A DNA stretch of 64,000 bases, from the NCBI RefSeq assembly GCF_016903815.1, contig NZ_CP069973.1; one strand, given 5' to 3'. Source of the DNA: Escherichia coli. GTDB lineage: Bacteria > Pseudomonadota > Gammaproteobacteria > Enterobacterales > Enterobacteriaceae. The stretch's first letter is position 1, and every line of letters begins with the position of its first letter. Shown here in pieces: positions 44,960 through 45,620 of this stretch. The translations under genes were made by a program, and so were the position numbers. Under the pieces are notes generated by a model. That model had not been told where the DNA came from and did no database searches. It worked only from the letters and a program-made list of their open reading frames with translations.

Positions 44960-45373
44960 TCATCTTGATCTTTGCGTCTCTTGTTGCAACAAAATCCGCC
45001 GTAAATCCCGCCATTCGGCTTCGTCCATGCTGTCGGCTGCCAGCCATAAATGTTGCCGTTTACCGCTATCAGAACGTAAACGCAGCATCATGCCGCTCTT
45101 AATCATCCACGGCGCTTTGACGATGCTCCACTCCTGCCCTTGCCAACGCAAACGCCCGTCCATCAACAGGCGAATTTCCCCCTGGCGAGCATTAATGCGC
45201 CGCTGGCTGCGAACGCAATCAAACACCACCAGCGAAAGTAACACCATCCATAACGGGGTGTAACTGAGCGGCCAGGGCATGAGTAAAATAACAGCGGCAA
45301 CCAGCCCATGAAGCAGCAAGGAAAGCCACTGCGCGCGCCAGGAGACGCGCAAATCAGATTGCCACAGGACCAC
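44960..45373 (-). CDS. cptA: Inner-membrane toxin CptA (YgfX) of the CptAB pair
   Basis: 137-aa ORF with two hydrophobic segments ([32 protein letters not shown]). Its start overlaps the sdhE stop by about 20 nt. Confidence 0.8.
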
Positions 45374-45620
45374 GTTCCCGGTTCCGTGTCTGGATGAGTC
45401 GGACCATCATTTCCAATTCTGCATCGGCCGGTTTACCGTGATTCATCAGCCAGTTGAACAGGTCTGGATCGTCACATTCCAGCAGACGAATAAAGATGCG
45501 TTTTTCGTCATCGCTTAAGCTGTCATACTCATGTTCGAAAAACGGCATGATTGAAATATCGAGTTCGCGCATACCACGGCGGCATGCCCAATGAATGCGG
45601 GCTTTGTTGTTAATGTCCAT
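45354..45620 (-). CDS. sdhE: FAD assembly factor SdhE (YgfY/CptB), antitoxin partner of CptA
   Basis: 88-aa [35 protein letters not shown] contains the RGMRE(L)D motif. Confidence 0.88.

Follow-up and report, generated by a model that had tools for sequence, protein, structure and literature searches.

The stretch of Escherichia coli DNA analyzed here (contig NZ_CP069973.1; 64,000 nucleotides, hereafter the window) carries sdhE (also ygfY or cptB) and ygfX (also cptA) as an overlapping pair on its minus strand, and our analyses revealed a real, conserved gene pair and no chance pattern. It is a well-known, ordinary housekeeping bicistronic operon of the E. coli core genome and, as such, already known. 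The safest statement about it is that sdhE encodes a flavin adenine dinucleotide (FAD) assembly factor and that ygfX encodes its membrane partner, for which any function is a candidate only. Beyond this, we favor, as the probable overall reading, that YgfX is a membrane-anchored oligomer with a pleckstrin homology (PH)-like domain that docks or modulates SdhE, and that the pair serves no toxin–antitoxin (TA) purpose. This preference draws on four lines of evidence taken together, namely the predicted fold of YgfX, the conserved operon structure, the gene neighborhood, and a published interaction between the two proteins.

To define the pair, we evaluated the open reading frame (ORF) listing over positions 43500–47500 of the window, in which sdhE spans 45354..45620 (minus strand; 88 amino acids, ATG start, TGA stop) and ygfX spans 44960..45373 (minus strand; 137 amino acids, GTG start, TGA stop). 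An original prediction, made from the sequence alone, had placed the pair at the same span, 44960-45620, with an overlap of about 20 nt, and the listing gives exactly 20 nt at 45354..45373 on the minus strand (GTGGTCCTGTGGCAATCTGA), such that the start codon of ygfX falls among the seven final codons of sdhE, in the +1 frame. The prediction had proposed a comparison with K-12, and the geometry there proved identical (ygfX 3040416..3040823, sdhE 3040804..3041070, 20-nt overlap), as did the sequence of the overlap itself. It had also named failed domain searches as the outcome that would count against it; instead, both the Sdh5 and the Cpta_toxin/YgfX families were recovered with strong scores.

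For the upstream product, these searches revealed a match to Pfam Sdh5 (PF03937; E=5e-26, 90.8 bits against a cut-off of 27) and to the NCBIfam SdhE equivalog NF008130 that spans residues 1-88 of 88 (198.4 bits against a cut-off of 120). The RGxxE-type motif anticipated for this protein was located by a regular expression on the translation as R15-G16-M17-R18-E19 (45564..45578, minus strand), so that both the curated cut-off and the motif place it in the SdhE/Sdh5/SDHAF2 family. SdhE is identical in amino acids to K-12 b2897 (100%), the genes differing at four synonymous and no non-synonymous positions, and it is near-identical to crystallized E. coli proteins (PDB 1X6I, E=8e-59; also 6C12 and 6B58, in which SdhE is crystallized with SdhA and FrdA). 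SdhE is established in E. coli as a soluble assembly factor that promotes the covalent attachment of FAD to SdhA and FrdA, and flavinylation of these two subunits by the SdhE of the window would follow from its complete identity to the K-12 protein. Knockout of ygfY in E. coli yields viable cells that lack succinate dehydrogenase (SDH) activity and do not grow on succinate (PMC5293155).

The distribution of the pair is that of a core locus. The chromosomal order recJ–dsbC–xerD–fldB–ygfX–sdhE–ygfZ–trhA–yqfB–bglA is the same in K-12 MG1655 and in strain 222 (100%-identical), and a 1.2-kb query across the pair found matches in 5425 of the 5426 complete E. coli genomes searched, with one place of match in the median genome. 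All of these matches were chromosomal except for one place on a plasmid, the synteny around the pair was fixed (xerD–fldB–ygfX–sdhE–ygfZ–trhA), and RefSeq annotated every matched locus as 'ygfX: protein YgfX | sdhE: FAD assembly factor SdhE'. A survey of TA systems likewise counted the locus as one of a small number of 'toxins' that reach 80% or more of the isolates in each sequence type (ST) studied (PMC10790755), which fits a core gene. Differences from K-12 are few in both genes, with six synonymous and two missense differences in ygfX beside those given above for sdhE, and these counts are consistent with purifying selection on both.

This distribution bears directly on the view that CptA/CptB is a true type IV TA module, in which membrane-bound YgfX inhibits the polymerization of FtsZ and MreB and SdhE doubles as the antitoxin, coupling respiratory-chain assembly to cell division. 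TA loci are typically, if not by strict definition, accessory and patchy, and often mobile or multi-copy, and we found here a core, single-copy locus of fixed synteny without mobility. The antitoxin-first layout with overlapping genes does agree with a TA module, as does the orthology of the pair to the K-12 genes for which TA activity was reported. Thus, of the earlier proposal that the locus is the CptAB module, the orthology to K-12 sdhE (ygfY) and ygfX, once named CptB and CptA, stands, whereas the label of a membrane toxin with its antitoxin is not established, given conflicting literature and a locus that is core, single-copy and syntenic.

We then turned to YgfX itself, which matches Pfam Cpta_toxin (PF07254) with E=1e-49 and 168.4 bits against a cut-off of 27.3, its residues 2-131 aligning to profile positions 1-132 of 133, and which is 99% identical to K-12 b2896 with the substitutions I21L and G103S. 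The original description of a two-helix membrane protein agrees with two hydrophobic segments that AlphaFold folds into a helical hairpin. Transmembrane (TM) helix 1 covers approximately residues 14-32 (45278..45334, minus strand; Kyte-Doolittle 19-residue windows up to 2.0; AlphaFold helix 11-30), and TM helix 2 covers approximately residues 38-54 (45212..45262, minus strand; hydropathy 1.76; AlphaFold helix 35-61), where the AlphaFold positions are in model numbering, that is, the protein residue minus 1. The hydrophobic stretches give way to a charged tail roughly 80 residues long, and the charge distribution, with a short WPLS loop between the helices and positive charge after the second, suggests that both termini are cytoplasmic. 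Together with the profile score and the position of the gene overlapping the end of sdhE, the two N-terminal TM helices and predicted cytoplasmic C-terminal domain give YgfX all the features by which its family is recognized.

The cytoplasmic part is a domain of about 75 residues that was absent from the original description. Residues ~63-137 (44963..45187, minus strand) are modeled as six beta strands followed by a C-terminal helix in a PH-like fold. The AlphaFold2 model as a whole, a very confident one built from a 46-sequence alignment (mean pLDDT 96.5, pTM 0.80), runs from a short N-terminal strand through the two long helices of the TM hairpin to the six strands and the final helix, and in it the beta sandwich capped by a C-terminal helix that marks PH-like domains is present as predicted. 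Structure searches with the whole model were dominated by the helical hairpin and uninformative, and among solved structures none was related to YgfX by sequence. DUF2244, a bacterial PH (PHb) family with two N-terminal membrane helices and for which, as for other PHb proteins, oligomeric rings have been proposed (Xu et al. 2010, PMC2817789), was weakly matched by 3 of the 46 YgfX family members, the best at E=0.009 and below the cut-off; the YgfX of the window had no DUF2244 match, so that membership in a described PHb family was not recovered by sequence profile. In the literature searched we found no paper linking YgfX to a PH-like fold, which may nevertheless be evident in public structure databases. 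As modeled, a TM hairpin with a PH-like domain is more in keeping with a protein that partners SdhE at the membrane than with a dedicated toxin.

A search for the family across 1.84 billion representatives gave, at E≤1e-3, only 134 clusters (50% identity). The YgfX family is thus small, and is a lineage-specific accessory to SdhE, whose own family is much wider. Six distant members were sampled (21–35% identity, host genomes of 37–70% GC), and all six loci carry an Sdh5/SdhE gene directly upstream on the same strand that overlaps ygfX by 14–38 nt, each of these partners keeping the RGxxE motif. A ygfZ-type gene lies divergent upstream in five of the six, and in two a flavodoxin gene converges from downstream, like fldB in the window. 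At one locus on a 70%-GC metagenome contig (L004, 1-3447) sdhA, sdhB and a MAPEG-family gene immediately precede the sdhE–ygfX pair, and at another (L006, 662-1841) the convergent downstream gene carries Succ_DH_flav_C, a domain of the SDH, fumarate reductase (FRD) and aspartate-oxidase flavoprotein family. Housekeeping and SDH-related neighbors of this kind are unlike those of a typical TA module; these neighborhoods are characteristic of a housekeeping operon that is inherited vertically and linked to the biology of flavoproteins and complex II, not of a mobile addiction module.

The metagenome matches also included apparent SdhE-YgfX fusions of 166-217 amino acids with both PF03937 and PF07254 (P0003, P0004, P0007, P0013 and P0018). 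We considered a conserved fusion or a programmed frameshift and rejected both, as no two junctions agree, being either internal deletions or frameshifts whose sites vary, and most of the fusions are singletons; these proteins look like sporadic mutations or assembly errors.

The neighborhoods also weigh on a second alternative, that YgfX has a role unrelated to SdhE or complex II, for example in membrane signaling or regulation, as in the prodigiosin effect in Serratia, and merely sits on the sdhE transcript. Deletion of ygfX does lower prodigiosin transcription in Serratia (PMC5042078), no SDH or FRD phenotype has been reported for ygfX, a two-hybrid assay in Shewanella saw no YgfY-YgfX interaction (PMC8621075), and PH-like domains are generic interaction modules. 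Yet adjacency and overlap with sdhE in all six distant homologs, across 37-70% GC, are difficult to account for unless the two genes are functionally linked, their products were reported to interact in Serratia (PMC3985639), and some ygfX loci adjoin sdhAB or another gene of the SDH/FRD flavoprotein family. We therefore regard an unrelated role as unlikely.

Returning to the membrane partner of SdhE that we favor, the account runs as follows. SdhE promotes covalent FAD attachment to SdhA and FrdA. YgfX, made from a GTG inside the end of sdhE and presumably coupled to sdhE termination, is an inner-membrane protein with a predicted N-terminal beta strand, TM hairpin and cytoplasmic PH-like domain. 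There it may dock or modulate SdhE at the site where complex II and fumarate reductase are assembled. In agreement with such a partnership, sdhE and ygfX are co-transcribed (PMC5042078), and the Serratia proteins have been reported to interact directly (PMC3985639; PMC5042078). A more specific version, which we put forward tentatively and hold to be less likely than not, is that YgfX is no toxin but a bacterial PH-domain protein, so far unrecognized and anchored in the membrane, whose oligomers would give SdhE a docking site at the inner membrane and so position or gate FAD insertion into SdhA and FrdA. Membrane docking, if true, would account for the pairing, in gammaproteobacteria, of a membrane protein with an otherwise soluble flavinylation factor. 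The growth arrest seen on YgfX overexpression would, on the same account, most likely be incidental, arising from too much membrane protein or from off-target binding.

The CptA/CptB name goes back to Masuda et al. 2012. As later papers summarize that study, the pair was named CptB/CptA and overexpressed YgfX reportedly arrests growth and binds FtsZ and MreB, an effect said to be countered by YgfY. By definition, the toxin and antitoxin of a type IV system do not bind each other, and the antitoxin acts on the target of the toxin. The direct SdhE-YgfX interaction found in Serratia conflicts with that definition, and in the same organism the Fineran group detected no TA phenotype (PMC3985639). 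The literature also speaks against the expectation, for a type IV module, that the antitoxin gene is indispensable while the toxin gene is present. A Shewanella ygfY deletion was obtained and was not rescued by removing ygfX too, the double mutant being just as sick, and YgfX there neither changed cell morphology nor bound FtsZ or MreB (PMC8621075). The knockout of the E. coli 'antitoxin' ygfY is likewise viable with only an SDH defect, although it may or may not be polar on ygfX (PMC5293155). An Acinetobacter pair of ~23% identity did show growth inhibition by the toxin and rescue by the antitoxin on overexpression in E. coli (PMC8132199), but toxicity has been shown only on overexpression of a membrane protein. 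Nomenclature is divided as well, such that RefSeq has dropped the toxin name in favor of 'protein YgfX' whereas the Pfam family is still called 'Cpta_toxin' and TA surveys still list the locus (PMC10790755), and through these two routes the 'CptA toxin / CptB antitoxin' label continues to spread. Taken together, core status, synteny, SDH-linked context, a PH-like membrane protein and several experimental papers favor a respiratory-complex assembly operon, and we consider a true type IV module improbable, a shade more so than a role for YgfX apart from SdhE.

The overlap itself is informative about how ygfX is read. The N-terminal motif MxxWQxxLRxS is kept in an alignment of 46 homologs down to 21% identity, its serine nearly invariant, and the Pfam profile match begins at residue 2; because of this conservation and this profile start, the YgfX residues encoded within the overlap are genuine coding sequence and the GTG start is supported. 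The energy of the anti-Shine-Dalgarno duplex is -4.3 kcal/mol for both sdhE and ygfX, a value that 22% of positions within the two genes also reach, and since these energies do not separate the genes we make no claim about their relative translation. No distinct Shine-Dalgarno sequence precedes the GTG of ygfX, the anti-Shine-Dalgarno value for that gene coming from the 20 nt before its start, and with this start lying 20 nt inside the end of sdhE, ygfX translation is probably coupled to the termination of sdhE translation.

Upstream, sdhE shares with the divergent ygfZ an intergenic region of 242 nt (45621..45862), where the ribosome-binding site of sdhE (AGGAAG) lies and, presumably, the promoters of the two genes as well; a sigma-70 scan upstream of sdhE gave no strict consensus promoter match. 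At the other end, a hairpin extends across the stop of ygfX into the 33 nt that separate this gene from the convergent fldB (44929..44968, minus strand; RNAfold -16.2 kcal/mol for the 54-nt segment 44915-44968), and it may be a terminator without a U-tract. A terminator consensus scan did not report this hairpin, and the three terminator-like matches that it gave on the minus strand were discarded, as all lie inside coding sequence and within chance expectation. Rfam at permissive thresholds gave no RNA family in or adjoining the pair.

Differences from K-12 near the end of ygfX set the window apart at the level of alleles. DNA and protein alignments revealed that codon 136 is TCA (Ser; 44966..44968, minus strand) where K-12 has a TAA stop, which adds Ser-Arg up to the TGA at 44960-44962 and gives a protein of 137 amino acids versus 135 in K-12. 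Of the 5426 complete E. coli genomes, 50 contain the exact 66-mer that spans this stop-loss, which is thus a minority lineage allele. Rare alternative CptA arrangements in a TA survey were restricted to ST405 (PMC10790755), and the two may represent the same lineage. Separately, in E. coli FXCREC180 (NZ_CP196031.1 939540-939583) only 44 of the 66 nt of the ygfX 3' end align, with an 'OmpW family outer membrane protein' annotated under the match, a pattern suggesting that this strain has undergone an insertion or a rearrangement in the interval from ygfX to fldB.

Among the neighboring sequences, a 134-amino-acid ORF antisense to fldB (44528-44932, minus strand) lies for the most part across the well-supported fldB coding sequence and has most likely arisen by chance. 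The ygfZ–trhA spacer (46844-46919) measures 76 nt versus 195 nt in K-12, where the extra 119 nt include a second copy of a palindrome like those of repetitive extragenic palindromic (REP) elements, GCCTGATGCGACGCTG(G/A)CGCGTCTTATCA. Rfam gave a weak, sub-threshold naRNA4/REP match at 46830-46903 (27.5 bits versus a gathering score of 59.5).

Comparison with known systems places the two proteins and the pair as follows. The SdhE of the window is like the SdhE/Sdh5/SDHAF2 flavinylation factors in its full-length match and its RGxxE motif, with nothing that differs in the protein itself, and an overlapping ygfX downstream is found only in gammaproteobacterial members of that family. YgfX, as modeled, resembles PHb membrane proteins (such as DUF2244 and DUF1200; PMC2817789) in that two N-terminal TM helices lead into a cytoplasmic beta sandwich that is PH-like and carries a C-terminal helix, and we count a putative oligomeric nature as common to both; unlike those families, it has no significant profile membership, and in its full-length model a strand that precedes the TM hairpin packs against the domain. 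The type IV pair CbtA/CbeA (formerly YeeV/YeeU) is similar to sdhE–ygfX in consisting of two small adjacent genes with a toxin reported to target FtsZ and MreB (PMC8621075, PMC3985639). However, CbtA/CbeA resides in cryptic prophages in several copies, whereas sdhE–ygfX is core, single-copy and syntenic and its first gene has a proven, separate housekeeping function, and a direct protein-protein interaction has been reported for SdhE and YgfX (PMC3985639), contrary to the type IV definition.
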